Source of the DNA: a virus
Strand: one strand, 5' to 3'
Length of the DNA stretch: 64,000 bases
IMG/VR virus record: IMGVR_UViG_3300027759_000051
In this document: positions 31 through 38,059 of the stretch, in pieces
Numbering within the stretch: the first letter of the stretch is position 1
Layout of the letters: each line of letters opens with the position of its first letter
Position numbers and translations under genes: made by a program
Notes under the pieces: generated by a model
Seen by the model: the letters and a program-made list of their open reading frames with translations, nothing else
What the model was told of the DNA's origin: nothing
Database searches by the model: none

Positions 31-516
31 CTAGAAAGCTTGTCCTTGTCCGTCTTTTTTCAAAATCTTGTACTTTTGTTTTTGTAATTCATTGACGACA
101 TCGTTGTAAACGCGCACGAATACTTCTCTATCCCCATTAGTGTGCATCTCATAGGCTGCTGAACCTAGCTTCTCCAAAGTTTTTTGTAGTGCTTCTGGTT
201 TGGGCATATTAGTTTGTGTACCAAAGTTGGCGTCCTTTTGTGCGGTCATAAAAATACCCCAAGCAGAGTACCCATCTAAATGTGGGGGTATTCCAGTTTG
301 GGCATCAATGACTGCTCTTCTGAGTTGGCCCGGCTTTGGCATGTATGTTTCGTATACAGCCAACTCTAGGAATGCGTTAATCGTTTCCTCATACTCGAGA
401 TCGTTAAGAAGGTCGTACCATGCTCTATAGGTCATCTTCTTATCTACATCTAGGAGAGGCTTGTCATAGGTAGCGTATACCTGTTGGACAAGACTCATGA
501 GTTCTTCTTTGATCAT
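31..516 (-). CDS. Putative helicase loader/inhibitor (SPP1 G39P-like)
   Basis: Helical protein with 'AWYDLLNDLEY...YMPKPGQLR' and 'SAWG' motifs typical of G39P/replication-P-like proteins, next to an initiator-like gene; start moved to ATG 516 (ATGA overlap). Confidence 0.5.
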   Translation of the reverse strand: MIKEELMSLVQQVYATYDKPLLDVDKKMTYRAWYDLLNDLEYEETINAFLELAVYETYMPKPGQLRRAVIDAQTGIPPHLDGYSAWGIFMTAQKDANFGTQTNMPKPEALQKTLEKLGSAAYEMHTNGDREVFVRVYNDVVNELQKQKYKILKKDGQGQAF

Positions 517-740
517 AGGGAGCTTAACCAACCTATGGCCTTACCCGACATGTCGTTCCAGTCTAGGTTACCTATCTCCTGCAGTACATCGCCATCAGAG
601 AAGGATTCATCCCTATCTGACTTCATGCGCGCATAGATTGCTGTAAACAAAAGGATTGCCATCTCCTGTGCGTTACTGGCTATAGGGTATCCCTTCTCTA
701 CTTGAAGTTCTCCCGGTACATACCTGTAGTAGTCACTCAT
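513..740 (-). CDS. Hypothetical protein
   Basis: 75-aa ORF with GAGGAG SD, coupled to the downstream gene. Confidence 0.6.
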   Translation of the reverse strand: MSDYYRYVPGELQVEKGYPIASNAQEMAILLFTAIYARMKSDRDESFSDGDVLQEIGNLDWNDMSGKAIGWLSSL

Positions 741-830: not shown

Positions 831-1175
831 CTACCAGTCTGTGTCATTGGCGTCCTCGTCTGGGAGGAAGCTTAGGAACTTCTCCACTTTCTGGACGTCG
901 CGCAATATTAATTCAATATCATTATATTTTTTGTTGGATCGGTTCCGGCCCATGTGCCATTCGGAGTAAGTGCACCCAAGGATTGCGTCCTTACAAGTCT
1001 GCACCCCGTAAAGGTGGATGGCTGACCCGATGTTCCGGCGTCTCTCATGATCGAGCTGCGCGCGCGACTTTTTGTGAATCTCAACCCAATACTTAAATAC
1101 TTCTTCAACTTCAGAATCTGGAACTTTATTGGAGTTATCTATTTTTTCTAAAGTTTTCTTACGTAAGGTACCCAT
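831..1175 (-). CDS. Phage replication initiator/replisome organiser-like C-terminal domain protein
   Basis: 'VFKYW...R...I...AILGC...WHMGRN...YNDIELILR...VEKF' resembles phage Rep C-terminal domains. Confidence 0.5.
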   Translation of the reverse strand: MGTLRKKTLEKIDNSNKVPDSEVEEVFKYWVEIHKKSRAQLDHERRRNIGSAIHLYGVQTCKDAILGCTYSEWHMGRNRSNKKYNDIELILRDVQKVEKFLSFLPDEDANDTDW

Positions 1176-1517
1176 AGTTAAAAGTTACTCCTTATAAAGA
1201 TTTCTGTCAAAAACCAAATATGAGATAGATAACTAAGAACAAAAGAACTGATTAAGAATAGAATCAGTAAAGCACCACTTTGGAAGGGTTCCAGGGAAAC
1301 CTTTTGCTCAGGATTCCCCAAACCAGGGCAGCACAAACTAGACCTCAGTAATTCGGGTCGTAGGTGGACTACCGGTTTTTGGCGCGCCGTTAGTTGTCTG
1401 ATCACCATAGCAGTCTCTTCCACCACCGTCAAGTAACTCGGTGGGTTTTTCTAAAATATTTGGATAAATCTATCTGAGTTACACTGTTAGGTAAACCTGA
1501 TATGGTATTTTTTACTT

Positions 1518-1613
1518 GTCGGCGAAGGTCCCCTTTCCCTTAGCTGACGTGAACCCCAGGTTGAGTTTGGATGCGTTTGTAGGTGGCACATGCTGAACTC
1601 CCTGGGGTTCTTT
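1518..1613 (+). ncRNA. Candidate two-hairpin small RNA with anti-SD loop
   Basis: Extended -10 TGG-TATTTT (1503-1511) sits 6 nt before G1518; hairpin 1518-1548 with loop TCCCCTTTC; hairpin 1551-1610 closed by GAACCCCAGG/CCTGGGGTTC followed by TTT. Confidence 0.6.
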
Positions 1614-1893
1614 ATTTCCATCGCGAGCCCGGTGGTCTTTTATTCTTTTCCGAATTTAAATTGTTACCGGAAGTAAAAGAGTTGACGCTAGCCATAAAGA
1701 TGCGGATAAGACCGACGGTCATTGCCGCGGCGCCGGAACCTTTGACCGAATCCCAGTAGGAAACTGAAATAATTCCATTATCTAATTTAATTTCCGCGAT
1801 GTCCAGAACCCACCAGAAGGAAGTTCCGATTGAGAGGGAAAGGATTGCCAGGTAAAGCAGCGCGCCGGAAAGAATATTAATTGATTTTTTCAT
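1612..1893 (-). CDS. Membrane protein (2 TM)
   Basis: Two hydrophobic segments; ATGA overlap with the upstream gene. Confidence 0.55.
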   Translation of the reverse strand: MKKSINILSGALLYLAILSLSIGTSFWWVLDIAEIKLDNGIISVSYWDSVKGSGAAAMTVGLIRIFMASVNSFTSGNNLNSEKNKRPPGSRWK

Positions 1894-2456
1894 TTTACGC
1901 TCAGTTCCAGTGTGAACCACTCTTGCTCCACCATCATTCCAATCGCGCAGTAGTTAATTACATCCATGTAATTGTCGTAGAGTGATTCGTTTATTGGATC
2001 TGCCTGCTTTTTGATTAAATTCTCCAGACGTGCGACCTTGTCATGCAGCCGGACAAGTAATCCAATTCGTCCAAAACGAATAATATTGTCAGATCCGTAA
2101 TCATTTTGCTTTTTAACCAGGACGGAAGTGAACTCATTAATATTATTTTCGTTATTTTTTTTAATTATTTCTCCGGATCTGGCAGCTTCGTACGCGACTG
2201 ACCCAAGTGTCTCCCAGGAAAGTAACCATTCATCGTCGGAGATAAGGCATTTAGAATTATTATTTGAAGTTTTAATCATCGAGTCCAGTTGTTTGCGGAT
2301 GTCGTTAACGTTTACCCCGCTACCCTCGATCAGACGAAGTCTGGATCTGGTAGATGGTAAACAAATTAAAGAGACGCAGGTCTCGGCAGCTTCGTCCCAG
2401 GTTTCTGGTTCCCTGGGAATCTCTTCCACCACCGTATCGTCAATATAGGTTGTCAT
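1890..2456 (-). CDS. DUF1599-like nucleotide-modification-associated protein
   Basis: 'KKQNDYG..NI..FG..GLLVRLHDKVARLENL...ESLYD.YMD..NY' motif. Confidence 0.75.
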   Translation of the reverse strand: MTTYIDDTVVEEIPREPETWDEAAETCVSLICLPSTRSRLRLIEGSGVNVNDIRKQLDSMIKTSNNNSKCLISDDEWLLSWETLGSVAYEAARSGEIIKKNNENNINEFTSVLVKKQNDYGSDNIIRFGRIGLLVRLHDKVARLENLIKKQADPINESLYDNYMDVINYCAIGMMVEQEWFTLELSVK

Positions 2457-3619: not shown

Positions 3620-3914
3620 TTATCCCAAGACCCGGCATGGCACACCTCTTCCACCACCGTTAGGTAAGGGACTGCCTGGGGACAAGCCGTTACTTGATGA
3701 CCGTGCACTCGAGCGGATCGAGAAATCAGGAATATTTATTTTTTTGATTATTATCACCGGGCTCGAGCTGCTTATCTGGGCCTGGGTTGCCTGGGCGATT
3801 ACCGGGAACCTGGATGCGCGGGGAGATAATTCATTTTCTGATTTTATTTGGATGTCCGGCATAGCTATCTTCGCGGTGAAGTTCAGTAAGGCCATTAGTC
3901 GCCGCAATCACTAG
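3600..3914 (+). CDS. Probable membrane protein (start uncertain)
   Basis: Two hydrophobic segments in the C-terminal half. Confidence 0.4.
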   Translation: MTYKPHNYPKTRHGTPLPPPLGKGLPGDKPLLDDRALERIEKSGIFIFLIIITGLELLIWAWVAWAITGNLDARGDNSFSDFIWMSGIAIFAVKFSKAISRRNH

Positions 3915-6426: not shown

Positions 6427-6497
6427 AGTACCCCTTTCGTGGGTTTAGTTGTTAGTACACTTTCAACGTATCATGGTGAATAACCTATACCGAGTTT

Positions 6498-7004: not shown

Positions 7005-7109
7005 TACTCCCCTTTCATGAGATTAATTATTTAAGTCTACATTAATGACTCGATGTTTCAACTTTTAAATTGTCTTCCACCACCGTCACCTAAATATTCA
7101 GTTATTTAT

Positions 7110-7626: not shown

Positions 7627-7763
7627 GTTCTGCTCTTATATCTTCGCCGTTTTCGTCACAGATATATTTCCATATCTTGTCGTCGCCAGTGGCATTCATA
7701 TCTGCCCACCCCGTAGGTGTAGCTGTGATGGTACGTGAACAATGTATACAGGTACTCATAGTT

Positions 7764-8575: not shown

Positions 8576-8810
8576 AGTACGCCCCTTTCGTTAGTAGTTA
8601 TTTTTATTGTACTAGTGCGAATAACCTTTACCTAGTTAGCGCCAACGTTGCTCTATGAATCACCGGGCGCTGCATCATCTTCATCGTCGAGCCAAGGAAT
8701 ATCCCATCCAGCTTTGCGAATCAGATCTATTACTTCATCCATGCATTCACCATCACTCATTTCCGATGGTTCCATAGCTTTTATTATTTGCTGTATTAAC
8801 TCGACGTTGT

Positions 8811-8995: not shown

Positions 8996-9439
8996 TCATG
9001 ATAGCTGGAAATCTTGCACTCTCACCCAGTTTGGCTCTTTTCCATTCCAAGGAAAGAACCCGAGCATAGAGTTATCACTTGCCAAAATCACAAGTAGTCC
9101 ACCTTGACTAATGACGTAGACGTAATCTATCCAAGAGTCACTTAAGTTTTCAGGCGTGTACCACTCATCAGGGCTGCCCTGCTCTTCATTGCCAGCAATT
9201 CCGTAGCCCTCTACAACTTCCCAGCGAGACTCTTCAGGCTCTTCATTTGGTTGCCACGATTTAACAATAGACCAATAGAAATGGTCATCTACAAATGTCT
9301 TTACTGCTTTCTCGAATCCGTCACGTTGTACGATTTCCCAAATGTTTCTACCCTGATGTGAAGGGTATCCATCCCAATGGGCATAGCGCCCTTTCCAAGA
9401 GTCTCCATCCTGTTTTGCAATAACACTTCTAGTACCCAT
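8996..9439 (-). CDS. Hypothetical phage protein (MGTRS...HWDGYP type)
   Basis: Own promoter copy and SD; recurrent phage motif. Confidence 0.75.
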   Translation of the reverse strand: MGTRSVIAKQDGDSWKGRYAHWDGYPSHQGRNIWEIVQRDGFEKAVKTFVDDHFYWSIVKSWQPNEEPEESRWEVVEGYGIAGNEEQGSPDEWYTPENLSDSWIDYVYVISQGGLLVILASDNSMLGFFPWNGKEPNWVRVQDFQLS

Positions 9440-9496
9440 TTGTTCCCTTTCATAGTAGTTATTTATATCGTATCACTAGGAATAATCTATACCTAA

Positions 9497-9877: not shown

Positions 9878-10063
9878 CTATTCTTCCACCACCGAAACCG
9901 TGACGGTCTGATGTGATGTGTACACTTCTATTGGTTCGTAATCGTGGTCGTAGAGTTCTTCGAGTTGAGCGTAGAGTGTTGCCTCTAGCGATGCGATGTG
10001 AAGATCGGTAAGCGCTCGGTCAGTAGTGAACTCGCCACTTATTTGGTATCGGACTAGAGCCAT
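9878..10063 (-). CDS. Hypothetical protein
   Basis: ORF coupled to the upstream small gene. Confidence 0.55.
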   Translation of the reverse strand: MALVRYQISGEFTTDRALTDLHIASLEATLYAQLEELYDHDYEPIEVYTSHQTVTVSVVEE

Positions 10064-10203: not shown

Positions 10204-10522
10204 AGTATCCCCTTTGGGTAGGTGTCTTACAGAATCAAATGTATCAGGGTGAATAATCTATACCTAGTTTTTTCGGTCTAGAAATTTCTCTTCCACCACC
10301 GTAGCTTAATTAAATACCTTTTTTATTTTTTAGCGGGGGCCTCGATATTGCTAGGGCAGCTCAGCTCGTCTCGAACCCGCCGGGATTCACCCGGAAGCCC
10401 CGTTCCAAAATTTGCCACTGAGCGAAGCGGGGCTCAGGATTGAGTTCGAGCGATATTCATAGCTGTTCGAGGATCCCGGTGTTCCCGAGCCGGGTATTGA
10501 CTTGGGCCTGGCCTGCGTCCGG

Positions 10523-10720: not shown

Positions 10721-10805
10721 AGCGCCCTTTCATTAGTAACTTAAGTGAGTCGGCCCTAAACCCCGACGGAATAGAGCCGACTCACAAATGAGTATATCGG
10801 CAGAA

Positions 10806-11822: not shown

Positions 11823-11976
11823 GCCTTCACTGTATCAGTACGAATAATCTATTCCTAATCCATTAAAAAGCTTGGCTCGAATTGCTGCCGTGAGCCCCGA
11901 TGGGGACTGTTCCGGAAATTAGGTACAGATTATTCACGGTGGTACAGTTGTGTTGTAACCAACGGAAAGGGAATAT

Positions 11977-13166: not shown

Positions 13167-13295
13167 GCGCGTAGCTCGACGCTGATCCCGGTGTTCGAGT
13201 TCCCGTCATGAGCCCCGCCCTCAAGCTTTGCGGAAATTAGGTATAGATTATTCGCCGTGATACAGTTACGGTATAGCCAAACGGAAAGGGAATAT

Positions 13296-13571: not shown

Positions 13572-13799
13572 CGCAACGGCAGCACAACTTAATAACCCGT
13601 GTGGTCTTAACTGGCCCGCGGGTTATTTCCATTTCCCGGCTTCGAGGCATTGAGCTACTGCAGTCGGGGCTATAGCTTGTGCGCCGGATGTTCGAGCTAT
13701 CGCTGCATCGGTGGAGCCCCGCCTATCATCTTCGCTAAAGTTCGGGATAGATTATTCACCGTGATATGGTTATGTCATAGCCAAGCGAAAGGGAAAGTA

Positions 13800-14452: not shown

Positions 14453-14518
14453 CAACTAACTTTTTGAGGCATACGCAATAATCGCCGATAAAATAAAACA
14501 ACTAATGAAAGGGAAAAT

Positions 14519-16054: not shown

Positions 16055-16122
16055 ATTAGGTATAGGTTATTCACGGTGATACAGTTATCTCAAGACAGGC
16101 AATACTTATTGAAAGGGAAATT

Positions 16123-16398: not shown

Positions 16399-16458
16399 GT
16401 TAGGGATAGATTATCCTTGGCGATACAATTCATTTATCAACAACAAGAAAGGGAATAC

Positions 16459-16803: not shown

Positions 16804-17016
16804 AGCAAATATTTAATTCATGAAAAGGTGGGCGCTCTTGCCGGGGCGTCCGCCTTTTTTGTTAACTCAAAGTATCCGGAATTTGAATGCATGCGATTCA
16901 CATCCCGATGCGGGGCTACGCAGTAGCAGCTTCGCAGCAGTATTCGAGAGTTAGGTACAGATTATTCGTACTGGTAGAGTTATGTCGTTACCAAGTTACT
17001 AACGAAAGGGAATACT

Positions 17017-17767: not shown

Positions 17768-17815
17768 GTTATTCATAAAGATACACTTGGTTAGTTACTA
17801 AACGAAAGGGAAAAT

Positions 17816-18331: not shown

Positions 18332-18730
18332 TTACTCGCTTGCTACGGCATCACATTAGAGCGCGGTAGTTATAAAATAAAACTATTTATTTTTGTCACC
18401 GGGTATTAGCTTGCACAGAATAATAAAAGCCACCACAAATCCGGCAATGCAAGCGATAGATACCACGTGACGAATGGTACATCAAAATAAGATACACGCG
18501 TTGCAACACGTATCGCATAGGATAAGATCAACACCAGGCACTGCCGCACTTCATCTGCTCCCCACCGCAGACTGAGCGCAAGCCTGTCGGGGCCAGTTCT
18601 CTACCCTTCGAGGACTGGCCCCATTTTTCTCTTTAAGCCCCGTGCCGAGTACTAGCTGCGTGTTGTGTGGAAATTCGGTATAGATTATCCGTGTTGATAC
18701 AATTAGGGCAAGCCAAACGAAAGGGAAAAA

Positions 18731-19147: not shown

Positions 19148-19335
19148 TCGCAAGCGTGTGCCGTGCTCAAAATATTAAGCATGGCACACGCTTTTTTATT
19201 CTGCGTACGGGGCTTCCGACATGATCACCGGAGGATTCGAGTTGTGGCTGCAAAGCTTTGAGCTACTGCTAGAGAATTAGGAATAGATTATTCGTGATGA
19301 TACAGTGAGTACAAGCAGAAGAAAGGGGAACCAAA

Positions 19336-20848: not shown

Positions 20849-20861
20849 ACGAAAGGGAACA

Positions 20862-21390: not shown

Positions 21391-21445
21391 AAAGAGTTGG
21401 TTTTCCAACTTGAAGCAATATACTTAAACTAACGAAAGGGAAAAA

Positions 21446-27827: not shown

Positions 27828-28007
27828 TGTGTCCCTTTCGCTTGTCTAGAACCTCAGCATACCACGACGGATAATCTATCCCGCATTGGGCTTCTGTCCC
27901 AATGCGGGCAACGGGGCTTATCTGCGTAGGAGCAAGTTGTCGCGAACACCGGGATTGTTTAATTAAATAATCGGTTTATTTATTATTCCCGGCAGCTTCT
28001 GGGGAGC

Positions 28008-28623: not shown

Positions 28624-28729
28624 CGTGTCCCTTTCGTTTTTGCCTACGCGATAACTGTATCAGGTGGGTTAATCTATTCCGTATCCACGGGTATAGCTGG
28701 GCGCTCTACGTGGAGCCCCGATGGGGGAA

Positions 28730-37993: not shown

Positions 37994-38059
37994 TAGTATC
38001 TCTTTCTGTAGGTGTATGCTCAGTGTATCAGGGCGACTAATCTATACCGACTCTCTAGC

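Follow-up and report, generated by a model that had tools for sequence, protein, structure and literature searches.

The question raised by this locus is what a 435-nt non-coding gap (1176-1611) in a minus-strand phage operon encodes, and whether an RNA made from it could act on early genes elsewhere in the genome. The window, i.e. the whole 64,000-nt stretch of DNA analysed here, is part of a large uncultured freshwater phage without a close relative among sequenced phages; positions 1000-2200 gave no blastn match in 50,697 phage records, and the sequencing runs listed as carrying the stretch are 20 DNA runs of lake and freshwater metagenomes, with no RNA run among them. Genes between positions 1 and 11279 are on the minus strand throughout, and those around the gap include the following.

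31-531, minus strand: helicase-loader-like gene, on the same side of the gap as the O-like gene
831-1175, minus strand: O-like replication initiator gene (phrog_16167 and phrog_18020), on the flank opposite the membrane-like gene
1612-1893, minus strand: 93-aa membrane-like gene, flanking the gap and convergent with the small RNA (stop codon 1612-1614)
1890-2456, minus strand: 188-aa neighbour (p188), DUF1599, 'nucleotide modification associated domain 1' (E = 1.9e-8)

A 75-aa gene is grouped with the O-like and helicase-loader-like genes on one flank. Upstream of the RNA gene, the minus-strand operon comprises p134, p188 and the membrane gene and has no terminator on its own strand. Conservation of the gap exceeds that of the surrounding coding sequence. 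Pfam and PHROGs searches with the neighbours and with ten early proteins returned nothing that names the host.

The gap holds a candidate small RNA gene on the plus strand, whose promoter is divergent from that of the replication genes. The features of this region are listed below.

1404..1432, minus strand: replication-operon promoter TTGACG-N17-TATGGT with TG, containing the 14-mer ACGGTGGTGGAAGA at 1416-1429 (promoter scan; conserved in relatives)
1462..1474, no strand assigned: palindrome GGATA-N4-TATC, a candidate operator between the two divergent promoters, conserved in most relatives
1503..1511, plus strand: extended -10 promoter TGGTATTTT without a -35 element; predicted start at ~1517-1519
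1518..1548, plus strand: hairpin 1, in which 1518-1528 pairs with 1538-1548 (10 of 11 positions paired in the fold)
1529..1537, plus strand: loop L1, UCCCCUUUC, the proposed anti-ribosome-site seed, with the invariant core CCCUUUC
1551..1610, plus strand: hairpin 2, a long 60-nt terminator stem (fold and covariation)
1575..1587, plus strand: apical loop L2, GUUUGUAGGUGGC, whose core GUAGGUGGC is invariant in independently retrieved relatives
1611..1617, plus strand: U-run TTTATTT of an intrinsic terminator, overlapping the stop codon (1612-1614) of the convergent 93-aa gene

A preliminary description of this DNA had placed an extended -10 six nt before G1518, a first hairpin with a 9-nt loop, and a second long hairpin followed by a U-run; all three were recovered at these positions. 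The two-hairpin fold has a predicted energy of -45 kcal/mol (z = -4.5), and none of 200 shuffled sequences was as stable; the minus strand of the same region gave -39.7 kcal/mol (z = -4.3). According to the fold model, L1 is open at a cost of 0.07 kcal/mol, and L2 is partly paired, with an opening cost of 4.2 kcal/mol. Searches of Rfam with the whole window at the gathering score, and with 1100-1700 at an E of 10 or less, returned no family match. Directly 3' of the first terminator, a second terminator-like hairpin (CCATCG..CGGTGG, then TCTTTTATTC) is present at 1618-1645 on the plus strand; it falls within the end of the convergent membrane gene and occurs only in the window's own clade.

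Relatives were gathered by flanking-protein searches, by a replication-leader pattern and by an RNA pattern, and were filtered with a covariance model (R1); this model identified 16 distinct contigs with a single RNA copy each. Across the 18 tabulated loci, the RNA has p188 or the membrane gene on one side and the O-like gene on the other and is antisense to these neighbours, and the identity of the O-like protein across RNA-bearing loci ranges from 45% to 100%. Locus L007 was retrieved independently via protein, and both L007 and the L012 group were found without the RNA's own sequence. A pattern scan of a genome collection (18 fixed bases) yielded at least 119 matches, approximately the chance expectation, and R1 confirmed only L130 (CAZWXO010000071.1). 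L130 is a 14-kb contig from an uncultured Thiobacillus MAG bin, with a complete replication module and the small RNA; it is probably a misbinned phage contig, and no evidence on the host.

In hairpin 2, both partners have changed in 13 of 23 pairs, and the proportion of paired cells is 94.8%; none of 500 shuffles did as well, and slid controls were 35-55% paired. In the relatives, hairpin 1 has 4-6 bp on the inner side of an internal loop and 3-4 bp on its outer side, kept through compensatory changes, and six distant homologues adopt the identical two-hairpin fold (z = -2.2 to -5.8). While the stems covary, the L1 seed is kept, in an unpaired loop in all folds: CCCUUUC lies within a loop of 7-10 nt in every homologue, including L007. 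Conservation of the loop in related phages had been proposed earlier as a check, and its core is unchanged in all homologues, which fits the expectation that a many-target seed cannot drift.

Several lines of evidence assign the gene to the plus strand. In the alignment, the TAnnnT of the extended -10 is present in all 16 homologues and the TG in 15, with variable inner positions, and this form, TGnTAnnnT, is also that of the phage's 30 early promoters and of the replication promoter. A T-rich tail follows hairpin 2 on the plus strand in 15/16 homologues, and the opposite strand has A-runs at the corresponding positions. Thus, features of a transcription unit of its own (TGnTAnnnT, hairpin and U-run) lie on one strand in 15-16 of the 16, with no conserved frame. 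G-U pairs outnumber A-C pairs on the plus strand by 49 to 10, although the excess among variable pairs is modest (17 versus 10). Several relatives have stops in every frame of both strands, and no reading frame is conserved. A 44-aa minus-strand ORF (1487-1621) was rejected as a small protein, its ATG being ACG in L001 and relatives having stops in all frames. The objection that the element might only be the terminator of the minus-strand operon failed, because the minus strand has no U-tract after hairpin 1 or hairpin 2; the U-run is on the plus strand, whereas the surrounding genes are all on the other, and the plus-strand promoter and U-run are conserved. Judged by sequence comparison, this is very probably a real, conserved and non-coding small RNA gene of the plus strand. 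If so, it would represent a new family of RNAs in abundant lake phages, one that has at least 16 members and is well marked by structure and covariation.

Candidate targets of this RNA are found among the early genes. The window contains 30 copies of an early promoter, ..TAGGTATAGA TTATTC-N5-TG(A/G)TAcagT, at 6466-29093 (6.4-29.1 kb). Nineteen of these lead into a leader of 25-40 nt that ends with GAAAGGG (or a close variant) and an ATG; at approximately nine others the ATG is only 6-7 nt past the -10, giving a leaderless message without a ribosome site. Leaderless messages and extended -10 promoters that lack a -35 would fit an actinobacterial host. GAAAGGG occurs 24 times in the window (8.5 expected), and 19 of the 23 copies outside the RNA gene are followed at 4-8 nt by an ATG with an ORF of at least 47 aa behind it. 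Nearly all of these 19 genes are at 6.4-28.6 kb, behind the repeated early promoter. The candidate target sites are given below; except at 19321, each is a GAAAGGG at the ribosome-site position of the gene named.

6432..6438, minus strand: 241-aa gene
7010..7016, minus strand: 168-aa gene
8583..8589, minus strand: 208-aa gene
9445..9451, minus strand: 147-aa gene
10725..10731, minus strand: 65-aa gene
11965..11971, plus strand: 90-aa gene
13284..13290, plus strand: 91-aa gene
13787..13793, plus strand: 89-aa gene
14507..14513, plus strand: 140-aa gene
16111..16117, plus strand: 91-aa gene
16447..16453, plus strand: 114-aa gene
17004..17010, plus strand: 135-aa gene
17804..17810, plus strand: 171-aa gene
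18719..18725, plus strand: 138-aa gene
19321..19329, plus strand: 137-aa gene; best candidate site, GAAAGGGGA, exact complement of the whole loop (-13.2 kcal/mol)
20851..20857, plus strand: 47-aa gene
21434..21440, plus strand: 89-aa gene
27833..27839, minus strand: 103-aa gene
28629..28635, minus strand: 82-aa gene

The loop core CCCUUUC is the exact complement of the heptamer GAAAGGG. A GAAAGGG(G) class of Shine-Dalgarno sites had been claimed before, with an exact GAAAGGGGA at 19321; the exact match was found there, and all sites named at the time are among the 19. Equally, genes outside this class had been said to start differently, and the capsid gene (59676) and other late or replication genes indeed have GGAG-type sites or none.

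Pairing energies of L1 were calculated for the loop alone and corrected for mRNA accessibility (opening cost); RNAcofold and whole-molecule duplexfold were uninformative, because they either do not allow contacts between loops or leave intramolecular structure out of account. An energy of -8 kcal/mol or better was reached at 20 of 129 gene starts, as compared with 13 of 500 random windows (Fisher p = 2.5e-7). Fifty-nine permuted loops of the same composition had a mean of 5.7 such sites and a maximum of 17, versus 20 for the real loop. Gene starts were enriched over both kinds of control. The best sites were all 11-16 nt 5' of the start codon. The mean duplex with L1 was -12.7 kcal/mol for the AAAGGG class and -6.9 kcal/mol for the GGAG class; in contrast, a generic 16S tail (CACCUCCUUUCU, an assumed sequence) did not discriminate between them (-9.4 versus -8.8 kcal/mol). 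It follows that, to a 16S rRNA with a long tail, GAAAGGG is a ribosome site like any other. Selectivity of L1 for the GAAAGGG over the GGAG class is supported by these modelled energies.

In relatives that have the RNA, leaders of the form '..CTACTAC-N-GAAAGGG..ATG' are present as well. Two RNA-bearing relatives, G001 and G002, contain six GAAAGGG-N4-9-ATG sites each, and two with the same replication module but no RNA-model match, G003 (66 kb) and G004 (114 kb), contain none, a contrast that is effectively one clade because the latter two share their O-like protein, and in which the host may differ. G003 uses AAGGAG 15 times. A counterpart RNA with a loop matching the AAACCAAAGGAG leaders of the RNA-less clade was not found in that clade.

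We hypothesized that positions 1518 to ~1617 of the plus strand encode a trans-acting phage small RNA of ~100 nt. Host RNA polymerase would start at the -35-less extended -10, and hairpin 2 and the U-run would end transcription. L1, which is unpaired and has the invariant core CCCUUUC, would then mimic the 3' tail of 16S rRNA and form 7-9 bp with the private site GAAAGGG(G)(A) in the short leaders of ~20 early-cassette genes, which could block 30S binding and perhaps make the message prone to decay. Leaderless genes and those with GGAG-type sites would escape, and early protein synthesis would drop as the RNA accumulates. Sequence comparison shows how the gene is built, that it is conserved, on which strand it lies and that complementarity exceeds expectation; that the RNA is made, pairs in the cell and represses, and when it does so, we infer. 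That the RNA represses the GAAAGGG class of early genes seems to us evenly poised between true and false, and the complete reading, i.e. a trans-acting anti-ribosome-site small RNA that represses translation of the early cassette, falls a shade short of that. The stronger proposal of the preliminary description, that one RNA silences the whole early set, is not tenable, because about nine of the 30 early promoters give leaderless messages.

Several points weigh on the repression reading. The pairing of L1 with its sites is short (7-9 bp, -8 to -13 kcal/mol), and any pyrimidine-rich loop pairs somewhat with purine-rich ribosome sites, which counts against it. Covariation of loop and site is not seen, because the loop never varies. 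Moreover, trans-repression leaves both the invariant L2 and the strict linkage to the replication module unexplained; the fixed place beside the replication operon and the second invariant loop point to an additional or alternative role.

One such role is suggested by lambda, in which the promoter pO, at the same relative place, lowers pR transcription and is needed for normal replication (PMC3985674). By analogy, the convergent RNA and its promoter would damp or cleave minus-strand read-through, through antisense pairing and polymerase collision, and would thereby insulate the replication operon and set the transcription that reaches it; the ribosome-site likeness of the loop would be incidental or secondary. 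The RNA is always directly upstream of, and antisense to, the O-like and helicase-loader genes, and its U-run extends over the stop codon of the gene that converges on it. On the minus strand neither hairpin has a U-tract behind it, and the operon lacks its own terminator, so that read-through into the RNA gene is expected. However, a cis-antisense RNA stays complementary whatever mutates, so that two invariant loops amid drifting stems are unexplained, as is the fact that the loop is complementary to early ribosome sites more often than expected; the overlap with the upstream coding region is at most 6 nt, and L007 has a 48-nt gap instead. We regard this explanation as unlikely, yet as a serious rival. 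The functional molecule could also be the read-through mRNA of the minus strand or single-stranded DNA of an origin, with the hairpins serving as processing, stability or replication structures within the operon and no separate plus-strand RNA. The minus strand folds nearly as well as the plus strand, Watson-Crick covariation is blind to strand, and the site adjoins replication genes; yet TGnTAnnnT and the U-run are conserved on the plus strand only, the G-U pairs of that strand would be A-C mismatches on the other (49 versus 10), and the A-runs beside the hairpins would have no role there; we consider this most improbable. A type I antitoxin, which goes with an overlapping gene for a small hydrophobic toxin, was rejected, since L007 and L034 lack the 93-aa membrane-like gene and keep the RNA.

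Two further explanations address the invariant loops. In a replication-control RNA, L2 (GUAGGUGG) would pair with CACCUACG(A) at ~1359-1366 on the minus strand, in the replication leader; this site is the 5' arm of a small leader hairpin (GACC/GGUC), so pairing would refold the leader and tune O-like synthesis. Complementarity of 7-10 bp is seen in about 9-10 of 12 clades (sequences judged by eye), two changes keep the pairing through G-U (L006 and L031), and the RNA is strictly syntenic with this putative target. The complement of L2, CACCTACR, occurs nine times (2.35 expected), always on the sense strand of local genes. The site is missing, however, in L007 and L034 despite an unchanged L2; the leader's own hairpin also accounts for it, an 8-mer match between two RNAs of 100-200 nt is not rare, and L2, being partly paired, costs 4.2 kcal/mol to open. 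We consider this role distinctly improbable, although less so than one in which the small RNA acts via a protein or on host messages, the loops being sites for a host or phage RNA-binding protein or host-mRNA seeds. Protein-binding RNAs, too, are marked by the combination seen here, two unchanging loops on stems that covary, but this reading does not predict that a loop should selectively match early ribosome sites of the phage itself; we give it little credence. Antisense or replication roles are compatible with the trans-acting role. A combined scheme, in which an RNA shaped like the 16S rRNA 3' end masks a private ribosome site that the host ribosome accepts and, through L2 as a second seed and its location at the replication promoter, couples early shut-off to the start of replication as a family-wide early-to-middle switch, is doubtful, if a little less so than the lambda-like explanation.

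Regarding L2 itself, copies of CACCTACR in the sense of local genes start at 7712, 17394, 21134, 37307, 38007, 38354 and 49776 among those listed; the one at 38007 is in a short leader, directly 5' of GAAAGAG and an ATG. Against the 19 early leaders, L2 paired better than permuted loops (0/400). Clamping of one early leader by both loops was rejected as weak, the pairing being just 4-6 bp (CUAC boxes) and the loops sitting atop stems of 11 and ~25 bp.

C-rich-loop small RNAs of Gram-positive bacteria include, in addition to 6C, staphylococcal/Bacillus RsaE/RoxS and Listeria LhrC. The phage RNA resembles 6C, RsaE and LhrC in that it is short, has its own (here predicted) promoter and carries a C-rich loop complementary to many G-rich ribosome sites. 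The C-rich loops of actinobacterial 6C RNAs pair with G-rich mRNA sites and are thought to need no chaperone (PMC6486639); G-C-rich pairing of 7-9 bp without a chaperone, thought to be enough, is common to the 6C-type RNAs and our proposal. Unlike 6C, for which at least two C-rich loops are the rule, the phage RNA has one of two (L2 being GUUUGUAGGUGGC), and the 6C covariance model (Rfam RF01066) matched neither the whole window at the gathering score nor 1100-1700 at an E of 10 or less. It also differs from the 6C-type RNAs in being phage-encoded, with the phage's own early genes and their shared, repeated leader as proposed targets.

Among phage RNAs, c4 of P1/P7 and sar of P22 are antisense RNAs whose loops block translation at ribosome-site regions of phage messages, and c4 is cut out of the transcript that also carries the one operon it targets. 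The RNA described here is likewise a phage RNA whose loops are proposed to pair with the ribosome-site region of phage messages; unlike c4, it has a predicted promoter of its own and ~20 dispersed candidate targets, and the Rfam C4 covariance model gave no match. With lambda oop (PMC3985674, PMC5869508) it shares a short length, a promoter and terminator of its own (here predicted), an orientation against operon flow and a place upstream of O-like initiator and helicase-loader genes, a position and orientation found in 18 loci. In contrast to oop, which covers the cII 3' end, it overlaps the upstream gene by no more than 6 nt, and in L007 and L034 the adjacent gene is not the membrane gene; it is upstream of a dedicated replication promoter, whereas oop lies within the single pR transcript; and it has invariant loops and no sequence similarity to oop. 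By these membership tests the RNA is outside the 6C, oop, c4 and type I antitoxin classes, and we regard it as a new RNA family that would use a known mechanism in a new setting.

Temporal switches of phages are known mostly as proteins, i.e. sigma factors, repressors, and RegA and RegB of T4. In T4, the RegB endoribonuclease and RegA inactivate early messages via a mark in the ribosome site (GGAG) and spare later ones (PMC3014915). The proposed task here is the same, early messages being marked by their ribosome-site sequence; T4 employs a protein nuclease or repressor as the agent, whereas this phage would employ an RNA, with GAAAGGG as the mark. If true, one small RNA would retire early messages as a class by way of the private ribosome site that they share, an RNA-based answer to temporal switching, and the avoidance of the canonical GGAG site by early genes in these phages would have an explanation.

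The region between the RNA gene and the O-like gene has further conserved features. The O-like gene has a replication leader of ~220 nt, whose core, GGTCTAGTTTG ... AAAGGTTCCCCC-N3-ACCCCCTCCAAAG, is conserved at 1260-1403 (minus strand) down to 41% overall identity, also in the clade without the small RNA. The leader had no Rfam match, and a consensus fold gave almost no structure; its tract CCCCCUCC is anti-Shine-Dalgarno-like, and a complementary GGAGGGG follows in many relatives. It could be a cis-regulatory RNA of a new type or an origin element. Between the divergent promoters, the counterpart in L012 of the palindrome at 1462-1474 is a perfect GGATAGATCTATCC. L031 and L051 have another palindrome (GATTGCA..TGCAATC) in its place, which looks like a swap of operator specificity.

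Two sequence blocks recur beyond this region. GG(A/C)GACTCTTGGAAAGGGCGCTATG is common to the relatives (L047 at ~1151, L031 at ~10656) and is found in the window at 9380-9400 on the minus strand, where it opens merely a 27-aa frame. The 14-mer ACGGTGGTGGAAGA of the replication promoter is present in seven copies in the window (0.3 expected), each along the direction of transcription.

758-771, 1416-1429, 2422-2435, 3647-3660, 7073-7086, 9882-9895 and 10289-10302, minus strand: the seven copies of ACGGTGGTGGAAGA

Some of these copies occupy promoter spacers, some precede early promoters and some fall within codons, as in the MTVVEE with which p188 homologues begin. The 14-mer resembles the one-way 'stoperator' repressor sites of mycobacteriophage L5, and it is letter-identical in all relatives, with 3-7 copies per locus.
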